Source: Bacilli bacterium (lineage in GTDB: Bacteria > Bacillota_I > Bacilli_A > RF39 > UBA660). From it: DNA of 64,000 nucleotides. The notes beneath the pieces were generated by a model, which was not told the origin of the DNA, ran no database searches, and worked only from the letters and a program-made list of their open reading frames with translations. Below, piece after piece: positions 48,576-61,487 of this stretch. Made by a program: the position numbers and the translations under genes. The stretch covers positions 67,138 to 131,137 of the forward strand of contig CAAGEE010000018.1 of NCBI GenBank assembly GCA_900768815.1, written 5' to 3'. The stretch's first letter is position 1, and each line of letters starts with the position of its first letter.

Positions 48576-48674
48576 AAGTATAATTGAAGTTTAAGAATAA
48601 TATTAAATATTTTTAAGTTCAATTAATATTTCTATTCTTTTTATGTTATACTTTGGTTAAAGGGAGTGTTATTT

Positions 48675-50228
48675 TTGAAAGCTTTGTTTCCAGACTATGA
48701 AAAGAGTTTAAATAATTTTGCGAGTTCTATTTTAAAGTGTTTTGGAGTAGAGTGTAGTTGTTCTAGTTTAAATAGAATTGATAAAATATTAAGAGAAGAG
48801 AGTTATAGTAATATTATTGTTTTATCTTATAATGGATTAAGTACTAGTTTTATAGAGAAGAAGATGGATAGTAAGGGTATTTTGTTAAGTAATAAGGCAT
48901 TTAATATTATTTCTACATTTCCAGCTAGTGATATTACTTCTACTATGTCTTTTTTAAGTGAAAAAACTCCGTATGAGCATGGTTTTATTGATAGTAAGGT
49001 TGATTTTAATTGTATAGAAGAAAAGGCTAATATGGGTGGTTTTATGATGCCTTTTGATATGAAGTATGAAAGTATTTTTGATAAGATAAATAATTCTTGT
49101 AATGGTAAAGCATATGCATTATTTCCTTTTGGTAAGGGTAAATATAAAAATAGGGAAGAAGCTTATAAGACAATAATTAATTTGAGTAATAATTCTGGTA
49201 AAAAGTTAATTTATGCTTACTTTGATAATTTAGATAAAGTTATGATGAAGAATGGAGTTGATTCTTCGGAAACAATAGAAGAGGTTTTAAATATAGAAAA
49301 AGAGTTAAGTAGTTTATGTGAGAAGTTGACTGATGCTATTGTTTTTGTTATTTCTGGGTATGGAAATATAGATTGTTCTAAGATTAGTTTGGATAAAGAG
49401 AAGAGTTTAGTTTGTTTAGTTAATGAGATGTTTGAGATAGAGCCTAGATGTCTAGGTGTTAAGACTTTGGAAGGAAAACAAGATGAGTTTAGGGATGTGT
49501 TTAATGAAAAATTTTCAGATAAGTTTTTACTTATAAGTTATGATGAAGTTATGTCTAGGGGATTATTTGGAAAAGATTCTGGTAGTTGTTTTAGGGATAG
49601 AATTGGTGATTTTGTTATTGTTGCGACTGATAAGTATTATTTGAGTTGTAGTAAGTGTAAGGCTAATAATAGAATGACTAAATTTGTTTCTTGTCATGGT
49701 GGATTTACTGAAAAGGAAATGTTTGTACCAATTATTGCAATTAAGAAGGGTCTATTTAAAGACGGAGTTAGGGCAGTTTGCAAGGGAGACTATGAAGAAA
49801 TTAGAAAGATGAGTTCTGGTATACAAAAGTGTAGAGCTAGTATTAGAAAGGATTTGTTTAGTAATGTTGGTCCTATTACACATTCTGATTTTGTTAAGTA
49901 TTTTGGTAGAAATGCTACGGAGACGTGTTTTGTTTATACAATAGAGGATAAGGTTGTTGGCTTTATTAAGGTAAAGCTTAAGACTCTTGGTGGGTATAGA
50001 CTTTATAATGACTTTGCTTATATTGAGATTGAAAATGTATATGTTAAGGATGATTATCGAAGAAGAGGTGTTGGAACTGAGCTTGTTAGATATGTTATTG
50101 AGTATGCTAGAAAGAGACATGTAAAGAAGATTGAGTTTAGAGCTTGGAATTTTGAGGAGGAGATGTTTAAATTTATTGAAAAATTTAAGTCTAATACGTT
50201 GTTTACAGTATTTGAAATAGATTTATAG
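48675..50228 (+). CDS. fusion protein with an alkaline-phosphatase-superfamily phosphodiesterase-like domain and a GNAT acetyltransferase domain
   Basis: TTG start 8 nt after agggag. The N-terminal about 370 aa end with SCHGGFTEKEMFVPIIAIK (HGG...E..VP of nucleotide pyrophosphatase/phosphodiesterases). The C-terminal about 130 aa have YVKDDYRRRGVGTELVRYVIEYARKRHVKKIEF (GNAT motif A). Confidence 0.6.
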   Translation: MKALFPDYEKSLNNFASSILKCFGVECSCSSLNRIDKILREESYSNIIVLSYNGLSTSFIEKKMDSKGILLSNKAFNIISTFPASDITSTMSFLSEKTPYEHGFIDSKVDFNCIEEKANMGGFMMPFDMKYESIFDKINNSCNGKAYALFPFGKGKYKNREEAYKTIINLSNNSGKKLIYAYFDNLDKVMMKNGVDSSETIEEVLNIEKELSSLCEKLTDAIVFVISGYGNIDCSKISLDKEKSLVCLVNEMFEIEPRCLGVKTLEGKQDEFRDVFNEKFSDKFLLISYDEVMSRGLFGKDSGSCFRDRIGDFVIVATDKYYLSCSKCKANNRMTKFVSCHGGFTEKEMFVPIIAIKKGLFKDGVRAVCKGDYEEIRKMSSGIQKCRASIRKDLFSNVGPITHSDFVKYFGRNATETCFVYTIEDKVVGFIKVKLKTLGGYRLYNDFAYIEIENVYVKDDYRRRGVGTELVRYVIEYARKRHVKKIEFRAWNFEEEMFKFIEKFKSNTLFTVFEIDL

Positions 50229-50261: not shown

Positions 50262-50395
50262 TTGACAATTTAGTAAAATTCATTTATGATTAAGATGCGT
50301 GATGCATGTCACGCCGATATCTCTTACGTTTGTATGTAAGAGTATATTCAACCGAACCCCCTGAAGAGAGCATTTAACCGTGCTCTCATTTTTTG
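50262..50395 (+). ncRNA. candidate small RNA (promoter to intrinsic terminator, no ORF)
   Basis: TTGACA, 17-nt spacer, TATGAT at 50262-50290. The roughly 100-nt transcript has hairpins gcgtga..tcacgc and cttac..gtaag, an exposed C-rich stretch aaccccctgaag, and a terminator hairpin agagagca..tgctctc followed by T6 at 50365-50395. Confidence 0.4.
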
Positions 50396-50615
50396 TGCCC
50401 ATTTTATAATGGTTTGCGAGGCATCAGTTTTGCTAAAATAAATTTAGGTACAATTTAGGTACAAAAAAATTGACTTTTAAAATAGTTCATTGAGAAAAAG
50501 TGCCGAAAGTGGCAAAAATTCTCAATGGATTTTTAATTTTAACAATGATACGGATAAAATATAAATGGTCAGTATGAATGAAAAAAATATTATTCCACAA
50601 GCGGTATAAAAAATA

Positions 50616-50644
50616 TTGACATATTGTTCCGGAAACGGTATAAT
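50616..50644 (+). promoter_or_regulatory. consensus sigma-A promoter
   Basis: TTGACA, 17-nt spacer, TATAAT (50616-50621 and 50639-50644), 20 nt upstream of ATG 50665. Confidence 0.65.
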
Positions 50645-50664
50645 CTATATGTGAGGTGATAACT

Positions 50665-50988
50665 ATGCATATTAAAGATGTAAAAGATATTAGTGATGTT
50701 ACTAAAGATATTAAAGATCTAACAGAGCAAAAGAAAAATCCAACAAGAGAGGGCATGGAAAAAGTAATAAAAAGTGTTAGAGAACATTTAATATTAGAAA
50801 CAGAAGTATATGAGGATACTTTGTGTGTAGTTAATAATAGTACTAAAGTAAATATAGAGAATATTGATAGTAAAGTGTTATATAATCGATTAGATGCTTA
50901 TAAAACTATATGCTTAGGCTATTTATTAAATAAGTATGGTAAAGAAGCATTTGATAAAATTATTAAAGAATACAATTTGGAGGTGTAG
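50665..50988 (+). CDS. small hypothetical protein upstream of fic (candidate antitoxin-like partner)
   Basis: RBS gaggtga 6 nt before the ATG. 107 aa. Ends 1 nt before the fic start. Confidence 0.5.
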   Translation: MHIKDVKDISDVTKDIKDLTEQKKNPTREGMEKVIKSVREHLILETEVYEDTLCVVNNSTKVNIENIDSKVLYNRLDAYKTICLGYLLNKYGKEAFDKIIKEYNLEV

Positions 50989-50989
50989 A

Positions 50990-51910
50990 ATGAAATTTAT
51001 GACAATAAAAGAAGTAAGTGAAAAATGGAATATTAGTGAAAGAAGGATAAGACAACTTATTCAAAATGGTAGAATATTGGGTGCAGAAAAAATTGGTACT
51101 GCATGGTATATTCCAAATGATGTTGGGAAGCCAGTTGATAAAAGAGTGAAAGATGAAATTGAATTTAAAATTGATCTACCAGAAGATTATTTTAAAGAAG
51201 TTGATGAAAAACTTGCTAAGCTAAATAGTAAGAGGCCATTATCAAAAGAAGCCACTGAGTCATTACAAAATGCAATTAATCTAGAATGGACATATAACAG
51301 TAATGGTATTGAAGGTAATACTTTAACATTAAAAGAAACTAAAGTTGTGTTGGAAGGAATTACTATTGGTGGTAAGTCTATAAAAGAACACTTAGAAGCT
51401 ATTAATCATGAAAATGCTATTGAGTATTTAGAAGGATTAGCGAAAGATAAAAGTGAAATATCTGAATGGAACATTAAAGGATTACATCAGTTAATTTTAA
51501 AAGGTATAGATGATGATAATGCTGGAAGATATAGAAATCATAATGTTATTATAAGTGGGGCAAAGCACAGGCCACCAGAATATATAAAAGTTCCAGAATT
51601 AATGGAAAAGTTAATGATAAACTATGATGATTGGGATAAATATCATCCAATAGTAAGAGCATCTTTGTTACATGGAGAGTTAGTTAAAATCCATCCATTT
51701 ATTGATGGAAATGGTAGAACATCTAGATTAATAATGAACATGGATTTAATGAGAAGTGGATATGTACCAGTTATTATAAAAAAAGATAATAGATTAAAGT
51801 ATTATGAAGCACTTGATAAAGCACATACAACAGGTGATTATACGGAGTTTGTTAAATTAGTAACAGAAGCAGAAAATGAAATGCTTGATAGATATTTGTC
51901 CGTTGTATAA
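50990..51910 (+). CDS. Fic family protein with N-terminal HTH domain
   Basis: RBS ggaggtg. HPFIDGNGRTSRL matches the Fic motif HPFx(D/E)GNGR. The N-terminal MTIKEVSEKWNISERRIRQLIQNGRILGAEKIG is an HTH. Confidence 0.8.
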   Translation: MKFMTIKEVSEKWNISERRIRQLIQNGRILGAEKIGTAWYIPNDVGKPVDKRVKDEIEFKIDLPEDYFKEVDEKLAKLNSKRPLSKEATESLQNAINLEWTYNSNGIEGNTLTLKETKVVLEGITIGGKSIKEHLEAINHENAIEYLEGLAKDKSEISEWNIKGLHQLILKGIDDDNAGRYRNHNVIISGAKHRPPEYIKVPELMEKLMINYDDWDKYHPIVRASLLHGELVKIHPFIDGNGRTSRLIMNMDLMRSGYVPVIIKKDNRLKYYEALDKAHTTGDYTEFVKLVTEAENEMLDRYLSVV

Positions 51911-51940
51911 TAGATACTATTAATTAGGGAGGTTTGCGGT

Positions 51941-53434
51941 ATGGAAAAAATATTATTAGACACTAATATGTTTATATATTTGGAAGACTATGCAGTGACA
52001 GAGGATAAAGTTGCAACTTTAACCAAAAGACTATTTGATTCTGATCAGTATAAAATTGTGATACATCCAAAAACAAAAGAAGAAATATTAAAAATATCTG
52101 ATAGTGAAAAAAGAGCTATTTTTTCTTCAAAAATATCTGTGTATAGAGAAATAAAATCAGCTCCTAAAGCTACCAAGGAATTTAATGATACGGTTGGTTG
52201 CAACAACAGTCATGATGCAATTGATAATGAGTTACTATTTTCAATATATAGAAATTGTGCGCAGTATTTAATTACTAATGATAAAGATTTAATTAAAAAA
52301 TCACAAAAAATTGGACTTAGTGATCGAGTTTTATCTATTGATCAAGCACTTGAAAAATTCCAAGAAAAGGCACCAGAAGATGTCAGAAAGCCAGTTTTTA
52401 TAAACTACAAATATTTACATGAATTAGATATAAATGACACTTTCTTTGATTCGTTAAAAGTAGATTATGCAGGATTTGAAAAATGGTTTAAAAAGAAACA
52501 ATTAAAAGAAGCTCAGGCATATGTTACTGAATTTGATGGAAAATTAACCTCATTTTTAATGCTAAAAGTTGAAAATGAAGATGAAGACTATAAAGATTTT
52601 TTAAAACCATTTAGGCCTGCAAGAAGATTGAAAATATCAACTTTAAAAGTTGCTGATACGGGTAAAAGAATTGGGGAAACATTTATTAAAATTATTGTGG
52701 AAAAGGCAATAAAAGAAGATATTGATGAAATATATGTTACAGTATTTGATAAGCAAGAATTTTTAATCGATATGCTTGAAAGCTACGGCTTTAAAAAATA
52801 TACTAAGAAAAAAACTCTAAGATCAGATAGTGGTATTGAATTAGAAAATGTTCTCGTCAAAAGCATGAAAAATAAAGAAAACTATTATCCTTTTTTTGAA
52901 ATTGATGATAATAGAATATTCCTTGTTCCTATTCGTGATAAATATCATCGTTTGCTATTTCAAGAATCAGAAAAGCAATTTCAATTAAGTTTGGAAGATT
53001 TTCAAGGAAAAAATGTTGCTTCTAATTCGTTAAAAAAAGCCTATTTATGTGATTCGAAAATAAAGCAAATACAAAAAGGATCTATACTGTTGTTTTATTC
53101 ATCGGGAACAAAAAAGTCTATAACATCATTAGGTATTGTTGATGCAGTATTTAATAAGTTTGACAATTTTGATGAAATGTTTAATTTGGTGAAAAAAAGA
53201 ACTGCATATGATGAACATGAGCTTAGAGAAAACTTTAAAAATGATAAGTTAGTAATACTATTTAAACTATATTATTCTTTTGATAATTATGTTGACTTTG
53301 AATTTCTTAAAAGTAATAAAATAGTTAATGGAGCAATTCAAACTATACAACATATCAACAAAGAACAGTTACTACAAATACTTGAAAAGTGTAAAATGAA
53401 GAAAGAAATTTATTTAATAGATAAAAATACATAA
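51941..53434 (+). CDS. multi-domain protein: PIN-like nuclease, GNAT-like acetyltransferase, PUA-like (EVE/ASCH-like) domain
   Basis: N-terminal ILLDTNMFIY...ITNDKDL (PIN acidic residues). Middle LKISTLKVADTGKRIGETFIKIIVEKA...EIYVTV (GNAT motif A-like). C-terminal beta-barrel-like region GSILLFYSSGTKKSITSLGIVDAV. RBS gggaggt. Confidence 0.55.
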   Translation: MEKILLDTNMFIYLEDYAVTEDKVATLTKRLFDSDQYKIVIHPKTKEEILKISDSEKRAIFSSKISVYREIKSAPKATKEFNDTVGCNNSHDAIDNELLFSIYRNCAQYLITNDKDLIKKSQKIGLSDRVLSIDQALEKFQEKAPEDVRKPVFINYKYLHELDINDTFFDSLKVDYAGFEKWFKKKQLKEAQAYVTEFDGKLTSFLMLKVENEDEDYKDFLKPFRPARRLKISTLKVADTGKRIGETFIKIIVEKAIKEDIDEIYVTVFDKQEFLIDMLESYGFKKYTKKKTLRSDSGIELENVLVKSMKNKENYYPFFEIDDNRIFLVPIRDKYHRLLFQESEKQFQLSLEDFQGKNVASNSLKKAYLCDSKIKQIQKGSILLFYSSGTKKSITSLGIVDAVFNKFDNFDEMFNLVKKRTAYDEHELRENFKNDKLVILFKLYYSFDNYVDFEFLKSNKIVNGAIQTIQHINKEQLLQILEKCKMKKEIYLIDKNT

Positions 53435-53475
53435 TAATTATGATATTATATTATATATAATAGGAGGTAGGTAAA

Positions 53476-53850
53476 ATGTGTAAGATTTTAATGCCAATAA
53501 ATCCTGAATATGTAGATGAAATTCTTTCTGGAAACAAAAAATATGAATATAGAAAAATAAAAGCTAAAAGAAAAAACATAGATAAAATGGTTATCTATTC
53601 TACATCACCAATTATGAGAGTAGTCGCTGAAGTAGATGTTGAAGGAATAATTGAAGCTTCTCCTGAAAAGTTATGGGAGCAAACAAAAGAATATTCTGGT
53701 ATTACAAAAGATTTTTATTCTAAATACTATAAGAATAAAGAAAATGCGATAGCCTATAAATTAGGAAATATTAAAGTATATGATAAGCCAAAAAAACTTT
53801 GTGATATTGGGATAAATTATGTTCCACAATCATTTATTTATTTAGATTAA
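53476..53850 (+). CDS. ASCH domain protein
   Basis: MPINPEYVDEILSGNKKYEYRK matches the ASCH N-terminal motif I-x-P-x-Y-x-x-x-I-x-x-G-x-K-x-x-E-x-R. RBS ggaggtaggtaaaatg. Confidence 0.7.
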   Translation: MCKILMPINPEYVDEILSGNKKYEYRKIKAKRKNIDKMVIYSTSPIMRVVAEVDVEGIIEASPEKLWEQTKEYSGITKDFYSKYYKNKENAIAYKLGNIKVYDKPKKLCDIGINYVPQSFIYLD

Positions 53851-53851
53851 A

Positions 53852-53883
53852 AAGCCGATGTGAATTAATCATCGGTTTTATCA
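53852..53883. terminator. hairpin terminator, potentially bidirectional
   Basis: Stem aagccgatg...catcggttt followed by ttatc. It sits between the ASCH gene and the integrase remnant. Confidence 0.5.
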
Positions 53884-53885
53884 TC

Positions 53886-54190
53886 TTCTAAACTATCTAT
53901 AACAGAAACAACAGAGTCGAGGGCAGTACTAAACATATGTGAATATGTATTTAGTGTTTCCTCGATTTTTGTATGTCCTAAATATTTGGCAACTAATGTA
54001 ACATTGGCGACATTATTAATAAATAGTGATGCACATGAATGTCTAAAGTCATGGATTCTAATAACTTTTAAACCGGCAAGATTAGCTAATTTAGTTCTTC
54101 CAAGCTATGTATTAGAATCAGCTATAGGTTTGGCGTCAGAAACCACAAAGAAATCAGCATTGAATCCATAATAGTCTTTTTTATAAGTTG
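53886..54190 (-). pseudogene. tyrosine recombinase/integrase C-terminal remnant (internal stop, 5' part missing)
   Basis: Minus-strand translation reads ...AKPIADSNT*LGRTKLANLAGLKVIRIHDFRHSCASLFINNVANVTLVAKYLGHTKIEETLNTYSHMF... with the integrase box II pattern (H-D-x-R-H, LGH..I..T..Y.H). There is an in-frame stop and no upstream catalytic domain. Confidence 0.55.
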
Positions 54191-54363
54191 AGTAAGAGTA
54201 TTATTAATTTCATAAACTTCTTCTGGAGTTAAATTAATGACTTTTCTAGCATAGTAAGTATATTTTTCTTTTCTTCAACCACTTCTAGATTTACAATCAT
54301 TACAAGCATAAGGTGATTTTACAAGTCTTGAGCATGAAATATCTCTATCATAGTTATTATTTT

Positions 54364-54543
54364 TATATGTTACATTTTAGGTTCAAAATAACTTTTTTTC
54401 TATCTATTTCTCTTAAAATAGATGAGTGAGATCTATCAGTTTCTTTAGTCTCTTTTGCAATTTGATTAATGGATTTATTTTCGTTTAATCCATCTTTTAT
54501 ATTTTTTCTTTCCTCATAAGATAGATGACAATAATTTGCCATT
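54364..54543 (-). pseudogene. IS30-family transposase N-terminal HTH fragment (59-aa ORF with strong RBS)
   Basis: Minus strand has aaaggaggt 7 nt upstream, then MANYCHLSYEERKNIKDGLNENKSINQIAKETKETDRSHSSILREIDRKK then stop. It matches the IS30 HTH_38 pattern (HLTxEERxxI...S.r.IAk.L.R..STIsREikR). No DDE domain follows. Confidence 0.4.
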
Positions 54544-54725
54544 TCTAATACCTCCTTTAATTACAAATAAATTGCTTGGAAGGTATTATACCAATTATAA
54601 ATCTTATTGCACAACTTCTGTGCACTTCTTTTTTTAAAATACAACTAAATTAATAATCTTCATCTTTTATTGCTAAAGCACTAAAAAATGAAAAAATATG
54701 ATATAATCATTATGAGGTGTATAGA

Positions 54726-56549
54726 ATGATTAAACATACTGATCCGTATAAAGTTTCTCAGATATTCTCAAATGAGAAAACTATTATATATAAGATTCCA
54801 AAGTATCAAAGAGAATATACATGGGGACAAAAAGAATGGGGATTATTATTTAATGATATTATTGAAAATGATTATGGTTATTTTTTAGGTTCAATAATTT
54901 GTGTAGATAAAAGTGTAAGTGCTATGGGTGATGTTGAACTAGAAGTAATTGATGGTCAACAAAGAATTACATCATTATCTTTATTGCTTGTATCTTTGTA
55001 TGAAAAGTTAAATATCTTTAAAAATAAATTAGATGAGGATCAAATAACAGACTTAAATAATATTAAAAGGGAACTTGTTATAAGGTCTAATGGTGAAAAT
55101 ATAGCACGTTTGACTCCACAAATACAAAATGATAATAGAAATGATTACTTTAGTTTGTTATGTGAAAAAGGTTTACTTGCTGATAAGGAAAGAAAGAACT
55201 ATGCTGGTTTAAGAAGAGTATATAAAGCTTATGCATATTTTTCAAATGCTGTAGATAAATATATTGAAGAATTAAATCCTCAAAACGATAATGACAAGAT
55301 TAATGCATTGTTTGAATTGGTTAGAAGGTTTAATTCAGCAGTGTTAGTTTCGATAGAGGTAGAAACTAATAAAGATGCTTATATGTTATTTGAATCACTT
55401 AATAACAGAGGAGTTCCTTTATCAGCAATTGATTTAATTAAGAATCTGCTTATTAGTATTTCAGATAGAGATGGAAAAGCAGAAGAGTGTTATACTATTT
55501 GGAAAAAGATTATTTTTTATTTAAGTGATGATTATGGAGTGCAAGAAAGATTCTTTAGACAGTTTTATAATGCATACAGGGATGAATTAAATAAACCATA
55601 TAAAACAGAAGGAAAAACAAAATATGCATTAGGATATTTAGCAACGAGAACTACATTGTTAGATATTTATGAAAAATTATTAAAAGATGATTATATGACA
55701 TTTTTAAATAGATTAGAAGCTGAAGCCAAAAACTATGCTATCTTAATAAATAATACAACAGAAGATAATTATAATGAAGCATTGGCCGAATCGTTATTAG
55801 ATTTAGATAGAATTCAAGGCGCCCCTTCTTACATATTACTATTATACTTATTATCTAACAAAAGTATATTAAATATAAATGATGATATTATTAAAGATAT
55901 CATTGAGTATTTAACAAAGTTCTTTGTACGCAGAAATATTACAGACTATCCAAATACAAGAAACTTAACAAAAATATTTATGGATATAGTTGCTTTGATA
56001 GAAGGTAAAACAGGAAGAGAAATATATGATATTACTGTTAATTACTTAAAAGAAAATTCATCATCTGATGAAGAATTTGAAAAGAAGCTTAATGGACCAA
56101 TATATTTAGATAATCCTGATGCCACTAGATTCTTATTATGTTATTATGAAAATAAGTTTAAAACGAATGAGATTTATACTGACTTGTGGGAAAGAAATAA
56201 TAATAAATATGTATGGACTATTGAACATATTTTCCCAGAGGGTAATAATGTACCACAAGACTGGGTTGATATGATTGCTAATGGTGATAGAGATTTAGCT
56301 AATGAATATCTAATCAAATATACACATACTTTAGGTAATTTAACTATTACAGGTTATAATCAAACATTAAGTAATCTATCTTATGAAAAAAAGAATAATC
56401 GTACAAATAAAGATGGAAATTATGTTGGATATAAGAATGGTTTGAAATTAAATGAAGATGTTGTTGACTTACCAGCATGGACAAAAGACAACATTGAAAA
56501 TAGAACCAAAAAGTTAGTTACATTTTTTAAAAATGAATTTAAATTATAA
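54726..56549 (+). CDS. GmrSD-family type IV restriction endonuclease-like protein (DUF262 plus DUF1524)
   Basis: N-terminal IPKYQREYTW and EVIDGQQRITSL (DUF262/ParB-like NTPase). C-terminal WTIEHIFPEGNNVPQDW and LGNLTIT (DUF1524 His-Me finger). RBS tgaggtg 6 nt before ATG 54726. An in-frame GTG at 54717 is also possible. Confidence 0.75.
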   Translation: MIKHTDPYKVSQIFSNEKTIIYKIPKYQREYTWGQKEWGLLFNDIIENDYGYFLGSIICVDKSVSAMGDVELEVIDGQQRITSLSLLLVSLYEKLNIFKNKLDEDQITDLNNIKRELVIRSNGENIARLTPQIQNDNRNDYFSLLCEKGLLADKERKNYAGLRRVYKAYAYFSNAVDKYIEELNPQNDNDKINALFELVRRFNSAVLVSIEVETNKDAYMLFESLNNRGVPLSAIDLIKNLLISISDRDGKAEECYTIWKKIIFYLSDDYGVQERFFRQFYNAYRDELNKPYKTEGKTKYALGYLATRTTLLDIYEKLLKDDYMTFLNRLEAEAKNYAILINNTTEDNYNEALAESLLDLDRIQGAPSYILLLYLLSNKSILNINDDIIKDIIEYLTKFFVRRNITDYPNTRNLTKIFMDIVALIEGKTGREIYDITVNYLKENSSSDEEFEKKLNGPIYLDNPDATRFLLCYYENKFKTNEIYTDLWERNNNKYVWTIEHIFPEGNNVPQDWVDMIANGDRDLANEYLIKYTHTLGNLTITGYNQTLSNLSYEKKNNRTNKDGNYVGYKNGLKLNEDVVDLPAWTKDNIENRTKKLVTFFKNEFKL

Positions 56550-56550
56550 A

Positions 56551-56578
56551 AGTCGTTCAAAAGAACGATTTTTTTATG
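56551..56578 (+). terminator. rho-independent terminator
   Basis: Hairpin tcgttcaaaagaacga followed by T7. Confidence 0.65.
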
Positions 56579-56753
56579 TTTATAATCAGTAATTTCAAGT
56601 TAATTATATATGTTTAAATATAATTAAACGAAATCATTTGTTAATGTTTTTTTCTAAATAGATAACAATTTATTATAAAAAAGTATTATTTTAGCATGAA
56701 ATATATAAACAAAATTAAAACAAAGCTTTCTTTTATAGGGGGGTATTTTAAAT

Positions 56754-57199
56754 ATGAACTACAATAACAGTAATTATGGTTATGAAAGATGCTTAACTAA
56801 TGAGTCTAGACAGGATGTAGAATATCAGATTAAGAAATTAGTAGAAAAGGGTGTTAAGAGAGAAAATAGATATTTTTAATATGAATTTGGCGCTAAAGAA
56901 GATATATTAAATAAACTTGGGAACAACGTAAGACTTCAGAATTAGATTTATTTTCAAAAGAAAATAGCTATTTAAATGTGGGCCTAGTTAATGCTGGACT
57001 TCAATTGTTTTGTATGGTATTCTTTAGACCAAACATCAGTCTATAATTAGCACTGTTGATACTTTTGTCGCTCCTAAAAATGGGCCTGTTTATCGCCAAG
57101 GAAACTATGTTATAGTTTCTGCATCTGGGAGACTTCCGAGGATATTGTTAGAGCATTAGCTGTTGAAAAATCAGGGGTTTTGTTTGGAGGGTTCTAAAT
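56754..57199 (+). pseudogene. degraded coding remnant of foreign (GC-richer) origin
   Basis: GC content is locally much higher than the surroundings. A 41-codon ORF (MNYNNSNYGYERCLTNESRQDVEYQIKKLVEKGVKRENRYF) is followed by several short ORF pieces in shifting frames (...ISTVDTFVAPKNGPVYRQGNYVIVSASGRLPRI..., ...VEKSGVLFGGF). Confidence 0.3.
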
Positions 57200-57280
57200 G
57201 TTTTTATCCTGTTTAATTTTATATCAAAAACCAATTTACTAATAGATTTGATTCATGCTATAATTTGGTTAGGTGAAATT

Positions 57281-59829: not shown

Positions 59830-59925
59830 TTGGAAAGTGGAGAACGATTAGATAGAGAAGAATATTTTGAGAGATATTCTTTTTTTCTCACTAAAACATG
59901 ATATTATATAGTTAGGTGTAGTGAT

Positions 59926-61383
59926 ATGTATCAATTAAAGTATGATAATTTATTTACAAATATAATAGAAGATAAAAGTCATTTACTATGGAAAAATATA
60001 GATGATGTTTCAGCTGACGTGATGGATTTTATTAATAGTAAATCAGATAGTAGAGTTATTTATGTAGAGAGTGAAGATAAATATTATTGTAGTAAATGCT
60101 TGATGGAACTTAGTGATTCTAAATGTCCTAATTGTAGAAAGGAGATTGATAAAGATAATGTCCTTAAGATTTCTAATTTATCGGTACTTGATGAGGAGAA
60201 TTTTTTCTATAGTTATTACGTTTTTGATATTGTAGATAGAGAAGTTATTGTTTATAAAATAAAAGAAAATGTTAAGTATAGAGACGCTATTTTACCGATA
60301 AGATATAGGTATAGGGAATATAAGATTAGTGAAGTGTATGCTATTAATAAGAATAAGATAGTAGATATAAATGAGAATAAAGAATGTTTTTATAAAGACT
60401 TTTATACATATGATGATAATGATACTTTCTTAGACTTTATAGATAATGGATATTATTCGTATTTGTATGTTGGTAATTTAGAACAGTTAAAGTATGTTGA
60501 TATTTATAAGTATTCATTTATTTGGTTGGGTAAGGAATTCTTAGAGAAACGAAATGATATAAGTTTATTGGATATTACTTATAGTGCTCTTTATTATAGA
60601 CAGTTTGAATATTTGATAAAGTTAGGTTTTTATAATTTGGCATTTAGTTGTAATTGTTCTTGGATAGAAGATGAGTCTAAAGATATACTTGGAGTACCTA
60701 GAGGATATTATGAGTTTATGAGGAGTATAGATATTACTGTTTCACAATTAGAAGTTTTAAAGATTGTTAGGAGTTGTGATATTGATATTATTAATTTTTA
60801 TGAAGATTATCTTTATTTACTTTATGAACATGAAGATTATAAATATTTTGATATATTAAAAAAATATTTTGAGGAGAATGGTTATAAGAATGAGAGGTTA
60901 GTTGAGTACTTTGATTATCTTTCTTTAGTAGAAAAATGTGGACTTGATATGAAAGAAAAAAAAGTTTTATTTCCAAGTGATTTAGAAAAAGTACATGATA
61001 AGTTATCAGAAGAGTATATTTTGATGGAAAATCCAGAAATTGATAAGAAAATAAAATCTGTTAGTAATATTCTTAGTTTAAACAGATATGAAGATGATAA
61101 GTATATTATTTTTCCAGTACAATCAATTAATGGTTTGGTTGATGAGTCAAGTCAGATGCATAATTGTGTTAGAAGCTATTATGAAAGGGTTGCTGATGTT
61201 AAGAGTGAAGTTTATTTTATGAGAGAAAAAAATAGTATAGAAAAATCATTTGTTACTGTAGAGGTACGTAGGGGAAAAATAGTACAGGCTAGAAGTAAGT
61301 ATAATGGTGATGTTAGTGATGCTGTGTGGAAAGTATTAAGGAAATGGGAAAAGAGTTTGGTTTTGATAGATGAGGAAGAATAG
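59926..61383 (+). CDS. PcfJ-like protein
   Basis: N-terminal CSKC...CPNC zinc ribbon. The C-terminal NGLVDESSQMHNCVRSYYERV...VTVEVRRGKIVQARSKYN resembles the conserved PcfJ domain core (MxHCV...Y...TiEv..g.ivQ). Confidence 0.55.
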   Translation: MYQLKYDNLFTNIIEDKSHLLWKNIDDVSADVMDFINSKSDSRVIYVESEDKYYCSKCLMELSDSKCPNCRKEIDKDNVLKISNLSVLDEENFFYSYYVFDIVDREVIVYKIKENVKYRDAILPIRYRYREYKISEVYAINKNKIVDINENKECFYKDFYTYDDNDTFLDFIDNGYYSYLYVGNLEQLKYVDIYKYSFIWLGKEFLEKRNDISLLDITYSALYYRQFEYLIKLGFYNLAFSCNCSWIEDESKDILGVPRGYYEFMRSIDITVSQLEVLKIVRSCDIDIINFYEDYLYLLYEHEDYKYFDILKKYFEENGYKNERLVEYFDYLSLVEKCGLDMKEKKVLFPSDLEKVHDKLSEEYILMENPEIDKKIKSVSNILSLNRYEDDKYIIFPVQSINGLVDESSQMHNCVRSYYERVADVKSEVYFMREKNSIEKSFVTVEVRRGKIVQARSKYNGDVSDAVWKVLRKWEKSLVLIDEEE

Positions 61384-61487
61384 ATAATTAAGTGTTGTAG
61401 TTATTTAGAAATGGAAAAGTTCTAAGATAAGATATTATATTAGATTTTTTTGTTAAGATGGATTTAAAAACTTCCTGATAAAAAAAT

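Follow-up and report, generated by a model that had tools for sequence, protein, structure and literature searches.

Here we describe an integration hotspot in a 64,000-nucleotide (nt) stretch of metagenome-assembled DNA from an uncultured member of the Bacilli (GCA_900768815.1, contig CAAGEE010000018.1, forward-strand positions 67,138 to 131,137; hereafter the window, numbered from its first letter). Positions 50357-57220 of the window very probably represent one state of a hypervariable hotspot in one low-G+C gut Bacilli species, a composite of decayed integrase-borne modules at the 3′ end of a small RNA (sRNA) gene that includes three putative anti-phage modules. An earlier note on this DNA had listed a consensus promoter, a small protein, a helix-turn-helix (HTH)-Fic gene, a PIN/GNAT/PUA-like protein (PDC-M11A below), an ASCH protein (PDC-M11B), a hairpin, a tyrosine-integrase pseudogene, a fragment of an IS30-family insertion sequence (IS), and a GmrSD-family restriction enzyme with its terminator, and had read them as a former integrative element now fixed as a defense island between recG and pheST. 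We confirmed every one of these features close to where it had been placed, and their clustering is not a matter of chance; the region is a mapped insertion hotspot. Derivation from decayed integrative elements is likewise supported, as gene contents differ between the flanks. The comparisons set out below demonstrate the architecture, the hotspot, its attachment (att) core, the covarying sRNA, the swapping of cargo and the decay of the elements. The sRNA at the left border went unmentioned in the earlier note.

We compared the window with public contigs encoding exactly the same RecG or PheS (labels L001-L308 denote all loci and contigs retrieved for comparison with the window). In same-species contigs the left flank consists of recG and a gene for a 517-amino-acid (aa) phosphodiesterase/GNAT protein and is collinear up to 50365-50371, where the contigs diverge; the common right flank begins at 57218-57222 and comprises genes for a 242-aa Zn-ribbon protein, a NUDIX protein, a DUF2130 protein and usually PcfJ, followed by pheS and pheT. 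This places the island at 50357-57220. Between the flanks lie at least nine different gene contents: a phage-like element (L011), integrative and mobilizable elements (IMEs) of the Mob_Pre type with zeta toxin and FtsK (L013, L019), an integrase and AAA_25 element (L014), an Eco57I-type methyltransferase element followed by the Fic cassette (L015, L020), a Fic and kinase module (L018), a 1508-aa protein with GmrSD (L022, L025), an EcoRI-methyltransferase with two GmrSD proteins (L024, L026), and MqsA/SocA with a methyltransferase and HNH (L027), in addition to the state seen in the window. Because contigs with identical RecG or PheS hold different contents, the region is a hypervariable hotspot, neither core nor fixed, and what the earlier note had called a fixed island is one state of a strain-polymorphic site.

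The same comparison bears on whether the region is no island but an ordinary operon of the core genome that separates recG from pheST. Such a reading would account for the NUDIX and DUF2130 genes, usually PcfJ, and the recG/517-aa gene pair, all of which are kept in all same-species contigs, but it is already refuted by the interval from 50371 to ~57220, which differs among contigs with identical RecG or PheS, and it retains virtually no probability. As conserved gene order between recG and pheS was not found in the relatives, the reading as an island stands. Its borders do not lie at about 50.24 and 61.4 kb, as had been proposed, but at 50357-50366 (the att core) and ~57220, so that the NUDIX and DUF2130 genes, previously counted as part of the mobile region, are conserved flank outside the island. 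The PcfJ gene (59831-61398), assigned to the same region, is a separate presence/absence indel; it is missing in L027 and L028, which keep the NUDIX-DUF2130-pheS flank.

A mosaic of this kind could in principle be an assembly chimera, all the more so as the Fic/PDC-M11 cassette recurs in several genomes of gut samples and can confuse assemblers. We regard this as extremely improbable, since independent assemblies contain the same junctions: ENA contig k119_254153 (L012/L021) is 99.97% identical to the window, L012 and L021 being identical outside the PDC-M11A gene; L179 spans the left end from the sRNA through the att arm and small open reading frame (ORF) to Fic; and L022 and L025 span the GmrSD side.

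The left border falls within the predicted sRNA gene, which sits right after the 517-aa gene in the window. Its promoter (TTGACA-17-TATGAT, 50262-50290, plus strand) matches the consensus at 11 of 12 positions, and the predicted RNA of ~100 nt (50297-50395, plus strand), identified by folding and covariation, has a pair of hairpins followed by a tail that stays single-stranded (UAUAUUCAACCGAACCCCCUGAAG) and by a terminator, and serves as attB. The fold has a free energy of -34.1 kcal/mol (z = -5.85). Across 49 variants among the matches listed, compensatory changes occur in 12 of the 15 base pairs and 98.1% of helix cells pair, versus at most 52% in slid controls; none of 500 shuffles did as well as the real alignment in either pairing or covariation score. 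When metagenomes were scanned with the 24-nt tail as query, at least 120 contigs proved to carry it, with 79 distinct RNA variants among the matches listed. The TATGAT/TATAAT box is kept 5′ of the RNA in the metagenome variants, and among the matches listed the gene usually lies downstream of recG, even in species with a RecG only 72-86% identical. No Rfam family was matched at gathering score, and the window and L186 copies had no Rfam match even at E ≤ 10; ARAGORN found neither a tRNA nor a tmRNA in the sRNA region, and at neither island border was a tRNA, tmRNA or Rfam family found. A complementarity search for sRNA targets within the window returned nothing convincing.

Strains are identical up to a 10-base-pair (bp) sequence at the 3′ end of this sRNA, CCCCCTGAAG (50357-50366), the point of contig divergence and left border of the island, and this att core is common to all of the different elements. 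What follows it is supplied by the element. In the window this is the replacement terminator GAGAGCA-TTTAACCG-TGCTCTC plus a T run (50366-50394, plus strand; terminator scan), while across metagenome copies the hairpin differs by element type, with at least 40 terminator variants; a hairpin and T run follow the core in 106 of 109 copies among the matches listed. The sRNA thus stays terminated, because each element brings its own terminator hairpin. Unrelated elements also carry, at the same distance from the core, some 60-90 nt further along, direct repeats of the form TAGGTAC(C) N4-5 TAGGTAC(C), which by analogy are probably arm-type integrase-binding sites; the window has two copies of AATTTAGGTAC (50441-50462, plus strand) that probably act likewise. 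An exact second core occurs 6-12 kb downstream, again with terminator and arm repeats and adjoining elements that bear an integrase, in the tandem arrays of L156, L163, L186, L189, L228, L141 and L218. Finally, in 21 of 65 metagenome loci with enough sequence (among the matches listed) the minus strand encodes an integrase homologue no more than 2.5 kb downstream, in most cases at ~110-200 nt from the core. The shared core, replaced terminators, arm repeats, nearby integrases and second core copies together are the signature of elements that integrate site-specifically into an sRNA gene at its 3′ end and restore the terminator. In L158, at oriented coordinates 2759 and 6357, two complete sRNA copies lie 3.6 kb apart; in some elements, then, duplication extends to the entire sRNA and is not confined to the 10-bp core.

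The right ends of several elements (L186, L141, L122, L218 and L156) share a motif, TTACGRACTGRT...ATTT, that abuts the left side of the second core and is probably the attR-side integrase-binding arm. The window contains the core once, at 50357; no attR copy with up to two mismatches was found in it, and neither of the right-end motifs sought, TTACGGACTGGTT and TTACGRACTGRT...ATTT, is present. Of the att-like border repeats that the earlier note had proposed to look for, the left side has the core at the sRNA 3′ end, and none was found at the right border. The L011-type attL sequence was sought in viral contigs and not found.

Inward of the core, the first module of the island has an integrase chassis of its own. 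The segment 50357-54184 recurs in L009 and L010 at 92.6% nt identity, starting exactly at the core, and its two ends recur at 90-97% nt identity around other genes: on the left the att arm, from 50357 to ~50527-50606, and on the right the 3′ end of the integrase gene (53881-54184). The slot between arm and integrase is filled by AbiLi/AbiLii in L129 (where the intact integrase is followed by HsdM and HsdS), by AbiEi/AbiEii and two unknown genes in L142, and by Fic, a PD-T4-6-like Ser/Thr kinase and two unknown genes in L018. As the same ends flank these other cargos, the Fic/PDC-M11 operon of the window occupies a cargo slot between att arm and integrase.

The integrase itself has decayed. Translation and family comparison identify positions 53881-54184 (minus strand) as the C-terminal pseudogene of a tyrosine integrase, ~100 codons with one nonsense codon; the residues ...IRIHDFRHSCASL...LGHTKIEETLNTYSH are retained, an in-frame stop replaces a Tyr of its relatives, and the N-terminal two thirds are gone. 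It is 89.8-96.9% identical in nt sequence to the integrases of L018, L129 and L142, the L129 protein being intact (369 aa, Arm-DNA-bind_4 and Phage_integrase). Beside the Fic cassette, the integrase is N-terminally degraded in every copy compared. Reading split integrases with TGA as Trp (genetic code 4) was considered and rejected, as there is only a single TGG>TGA change, in L011, and host genes are intact under code 11; that change, at a conserved Trp, is what breaks the integrase of the phage-like element in L011 (13928-15040).

We asked whether the island could still be a single mobile integrative element or prophage, an idea that draws on the att core with its arm-like repeats at the left end and on intact relatives of the integrase in L014, L019 and L129. 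The remaining ~100 integrase codons with their stop, the core at one end only (complete relatives have two copies) and the missing right-end motif all speak against it, as does the GmrSD part, which is distributed among strains differently from the Fic cassette; nor are there genes for replication, excision or transfer. We consider it very unlikely. With its integrase truncated and no attR left, the island is no longer self-mobile.

Between the integrase remnant and GmrSD lies an IS30-family fragment of ~450 bp (54190-54643, minus strand; from translation), a frameshifted N-terminus with HTH_38 only and no DDE domain, so that the complete IS30 arrangement, an HTH plus DDE transposase between inverted repeats, is not found here. 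Its HTH_38 ORF spans 54363-54542, and PF13936 matches the 59-aa ORF in L012; the fragment had no plasmid match, nor does the window hold an intact copy of it. L022 and L025 become homologous to the window from 54644 on, 73 bp upstream of GmrSD, which marks this position as the outer end of the IS30 element; the interior of the element abuts the truncated integrase at ~54185-54190. The junctions suggest that an IS-associated deletion removed the integrase N-terminus together with whatever lay between integrase and GmrSD. In L009, the corresponding interval holds MazE and HsdMSR.

The cargo operon starts with a consensus sigma-70 promoter, TTGACA-17-TATAAT (50616-50644, plus strand; 12 of 12 matches). 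The first gene is a small ORF (50665-50988, plus strand; 107 aa from its ATG, from the ORF map) with no match in Pfam, PADLOC, NCBIfam or PHROG. It is cleanly absent in L018 and in L001-type copies, both of which keep Fic; it is therefore a dispensable accessory and not an essential Fic antitoxin. One nt further on begins the HTH_17-Fic gene (50990-51910, plus strand; 306 aa; Pfam Fic 1.2e-21, HTH_17 1.1e-06), whose translation contains the catalytic HPFIDGNGR and the inhibitory SNGIEGN (SxxxEG) motifs of a class II, self-inhibited Fic protein; HPFIDGNGRTSR conforms to the family motif HxFx(D/E)GNGRxxR. PADLOC assigned it to PDC-S04 (1.6e-36) and, in part, to SoFic (5e-34; residues 29-266 of 361). 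The protein thus resembles the single-gene Fic defense candidates SoFic and PDC-S04, which are class II AMP-transferases, in its HPFxDGNGR core, its N-terminal inhibitory SxxxEG and its PADLOC scores of 1e-36 to 5e-34, but it differs from them in carrying an N-terminal excisionase-type HTH_17 and in missing the SoFic equivalog threshold.

Thirty nt downstream of Fic follow the two genes of PDC-M11, a candidate defense system that PADLOC recognized here and that had already been described; the earlier note had seen it as PIN-GNAT-PUA plus ASCH, and Fic and GmrSD were matched in the same search. PDC-M11A (51941-53434, plus strand; 497 aa; PADLOC 2.6e-141) matches its profile over nearly the full length (residues 3-490 against 2-498 of 501). 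A single-sequence Pfam search with the protein found nothing, while an alignment of 48 homologues gave weak matches in the expected order: PIN_3 (3-116), Acetyltransf_1 (179-284) and EVE (372-481), the last matched in 37 of the 48. D7, D92, D95 and D114 are invariant in this alignment and fit a PIN active site. An AlphaFold (AF2) model of PDC-M11A (predicted local distance difference test score, pLDDT, 84) retrieved by Foldseek the GNATs PaiA, Naa50 and Naa60 (target-normalized TM-score, TMt, 0.6-0.7) and the ASCH/PUA-like fold of a Zymomonas protein (0.75-0.82); Foldseek did not recover the PIN fold, the assignment of which rests on sequence. PDC-M11B (53476-53850, plus strand; 124 aa; PADLOC 5.1e-44, Pfam ASCH 3e-07) lies on the same strand after a gap of 41 nt. 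It is homologous to ZmASCH (PDB 5GUQ; E 2e-06) of Zymomonas mobilis, its closest solved homologue, with GxKxxExR and a conserved Tyr retained. ZmASCH is reportedly a single-strand-specific ribonuclease acting on RNA. The C-terminal domain of PDC-M11A is modeled with the same fold (TM 0.75-0.82). Unlike PDC-M11B, ZmASCH forms the ASCH portion of a protein that fuses HTH to ASCH. A hairpin read by eye (~53853-53882) separates the convergent ASCH and integrase genes.

The two genes form a unit well beyond this species. The PDC-M11A family comprises 861 clusters at 50% identity (E ≤ 1e-30), and in 77 of 80 species-level loci from Bacteria and many Archaea an ASCH gene lies directly 3′ of it, the three exceptions being contig ends. 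Fic stands directly 5′ in 2 of the 80 and an integrase directly 3′ in 3; both accompany PDC-M11 only in close relatives. Given these adjacencies (ASCH 77, Fic 2), the core of the system is A plus B, with Fic and the small ORF as mere neighbors. Nearly all relatives on viral contigs (L229-L308) are PIN-less GNAT-EVE proteins, with only 2 of the 80 loci retrieved being full length; a split between PIN-less viral and full-length other copies was reported by Bell et al. 2020 (PMC7641849). Bell, Wolf and Koonin predicted (PIN)-GNAT-EVE plus ASCH operons to be defense or toxin-antitoxin (TA) systems, often found beside restriction-modification (RM) systems of type I, and as of that paper none of the modules had been experimentally characterized (PMC7641849). 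The operon is said there to have been described computationally by Iyer et al. 2013 as well (cited in PMC7641849). In searching the literature we came across no experiments that validate PDC-M11 or GNAT-EVE. The window copy resembles the candidate system in that both genes are near full-length matches to the hidden Markov models, share the domain order and have ASCH immediately 3′; it differs in being co-transcribed with HTH-Fic and the small ORF in the cargo slot of an integrase chassis, and in lacking both type I RM and the AAA_17 ATPase. Relatives of PDC-M11, or the same chassis, do stand beside type I RM in L009 and L129, L009 being a NERD-helicase island (8.4 kb upstream covered).

The single promoter and tight spacing (1 nt and 30 nt) could also mean that the four genes, from the small ORF through Fic and PIN-GNAT-EVE to ASCH, belong to a single system in which Fic might, for instance, be the sensor or regulator of PDC-M11, and this arrangement is kept wherever the upstream flank was retrieved (L001-L010, L012 and L015, and the genome loci L029 and L033). 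Set against this are the rarity of Fic and the near-constancy of ASCH next to PDC-M11A across species-level loci, as well as the copies that break the set apart: L018 keeps Fic with other downstream genes, L129 and L142 have no Fic, and neither L018 nor the L001-type copies retain the small ORF, which is deleted there. We therefore find a four-gene system unlikely and treat PDC-M11 as a two-gene core.

Compared with k119_254153, the window has seven differences in 34 kb, all inside the PDC-M11A gene (52079-52950); one of them, 52079 G>T, makes codon 47 a stop in k119_254153. This pattern could reflect a fitness cost of PDC-M11A, a recombination patch, or population heterogeneity or strain mixture in the assemblies. 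A cost is also what one would expect if PDC-M11 were a TA or addiction module that stabilizes the island, with PIN and GNAT as toxin and ASCH as antidote: PIN and GNAT domains commonly serve as toxins of TA pairs, the operon is grouped among TA systems by Bell et al. (PMC7641849), and the confinement of all seven nucleotide polymorphisms, one of them nonsense, to PDC-M11A fits a costly gene. We hold this possible, though doubtful, as PDC-M11 is found consistently in defense islands and beside RM systems and was chosen by PADLOC for its enrichment there; TA and abortive-infection roles are in any case not mutually exclusive. We continue to view PDC-M11 as a candidate anti-phage system.

The third module is an intact GmrSD-family type IV restriction enzyme (DUF262 plus DUF1524; 54717-56549, alternative start 54726, plus strand). 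Pfam supports both domains well above cut-off (GmrSD_N 130 bits against 33.2, 1.6e-37; GmrSD_C 54 bits against 23, 2.1e-14), PADLOC matches are to Orf5, HEC-06 and mREase_IV, and the translation contains VIDGQQR and the His-Me finger motif IEHIFP. Its terminator lies at 56548-56573 (plus strand; terminator scan). It resembles GmrSD/BrxU/SspE-type enzymes in having both Pfam domains, the DGQQR and His-Me motifs, and a single gene with its own terminator, but there are no BREX, Ssp or Dnd partner genes near it. The gene is found in L022, L025, L024 and L026 and not in L018, L023 or L027, and it shares only 68% nt identity with the L009 GmrSD, which has type I RM next to it. A 41-aa ORF (56754-56879, plus strand), called beside GmrSD in L012, L022, L024 and L025, travels with the module; it has no family match and is preceded by a G-rich ribosome-binding site.

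The right end of the island is a G+C-richer remnant of ~270 bp (32-42% G+C; 56949-57220) that ends at the right hotspot border at ~57221. It is common to L018, L022, L024 and L025 and is not found in L023 or L027, where homology begins only at 57218-57222. Its reading frames are all broken, an Rfam search of it gave no match, and we rejected the stretch 56940-57225 as a structured RNA (z = -0.03). On the other side, the left-flank gene (48666-50228) encodes an uncommon fusion in which a region resembling type I phosphodiesterase/nucleotide pyrophosphatase is joined to a C-terminal GNAT; a homologue of the fusion lies just 5′ of the sRNA in only 10 of 75 sRNA-bearing metagenome loci with enough upstream sequence (among the matches listed).

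The comparisons show that tyrosine-integrase elements insert at the core CCCCCTGAAG, pile up in tandem and then decay. The island of the window is a composite of three modules. The first is the chassis, whose left part is the att arm, from 50357 to ~50600, and whose right part is the 3′ end of the integrase gene (53881-54184), with small ORF, HTH-Fic, PDC-M11A and PDC-M11B as its cargo operon; the second is the IS30 insertion, now truncated like the adjoining integrase; and the third is the GmrSD module. Going by what is known of the families, the island would carry three independent anti-phage modules. GmrSD would cut DNA with modified bases. EVE and ASCH would read a modified base in phage DNA or RNA and thereby steer the GNAT and the PIN RNase, with abortive infection or a toxin-like growth arrest as the outcome, and Fic may act as a self-inhibited AMP-transferase of the SoFic/PDC-S04 type.

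This arrangement recalls islands at the 3′ ends of tRNA and tmRNA genes, such as P4-like satellites and streptococcal IMEs: a tyrosine integrase with an Arm-binding domain uses a short core where a small RNA gene ends (3′), that end is restored by the element, elements accrete in tandem, and a variable defense slot lies next to the integrase gene. It differs in that the target is an unannotated sRNA, that only the terminator is replaced, with a sequence free to vary (at least 40 variants), and that a chassis may need no more than ~4.9 kb for cargo and integrase together (L018).

Several points weigh against the proposed origin and roles of the island. The anti-phage roles of PDC-M11 and Fic are predicted, the "PDC" models of PADLOC being candidates only. 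Fic scores 31.9 bits against a cut-off of 550 for the NCBIfam SoFic equivalog NF046030; it is for this reason not a SoFic orthologue and may do something else. Metagenome assemblies are the source of all the data, the sRNA being predicted from them, and no empty attB was found among the contigs compared. Only the positions of the junctions point to IS30 as the cause of the deletion. Lastly, positions 50998-54070 recur at 95.5% identity in L001-L008 in an unrelated context, with IS110 nearby and no sRNA match within the retrieved stretch, and site-specific integration is therefore not the only route by which the cassette spreads.

The island itself is ordinary, a standard defense island built from known or candidate systems; what is new is the landing site, an unannotated sRNA as attB, together with an integrase chassis that has a swappable defense slot. 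With moderate confidence, we favor the view that the ~100-nt RNA represents a new family of regulatory sRNAs that is widely conserved in Bacilli of gut and rumen, whose invariant C-rich tail doubles as a universal attB at which many related mini-islands borne by integrases land, each bringing a replacement terminator and a swappable cargo slot in which PDC-M11, AbiL, AbiE and Fic/kinase are alternative cargos. The window provides a natural, intact and promoter-equipped copy of the candidate PIN-GNAT-EVE/ASCH system beside GmrSD, and this neighborhood suggests that modified phage nucleic acids are sensed in layers. It also adds a case in which selection keeps an sRNA terminated while mobile elements repeatedly replace the terminator sequence. 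Because anything between att arm and integrase is a candidate, the hotspot at this unannotated, strongly covarying sRNA gene could be mined for new defense cargo in uncultured gut Bacilli.

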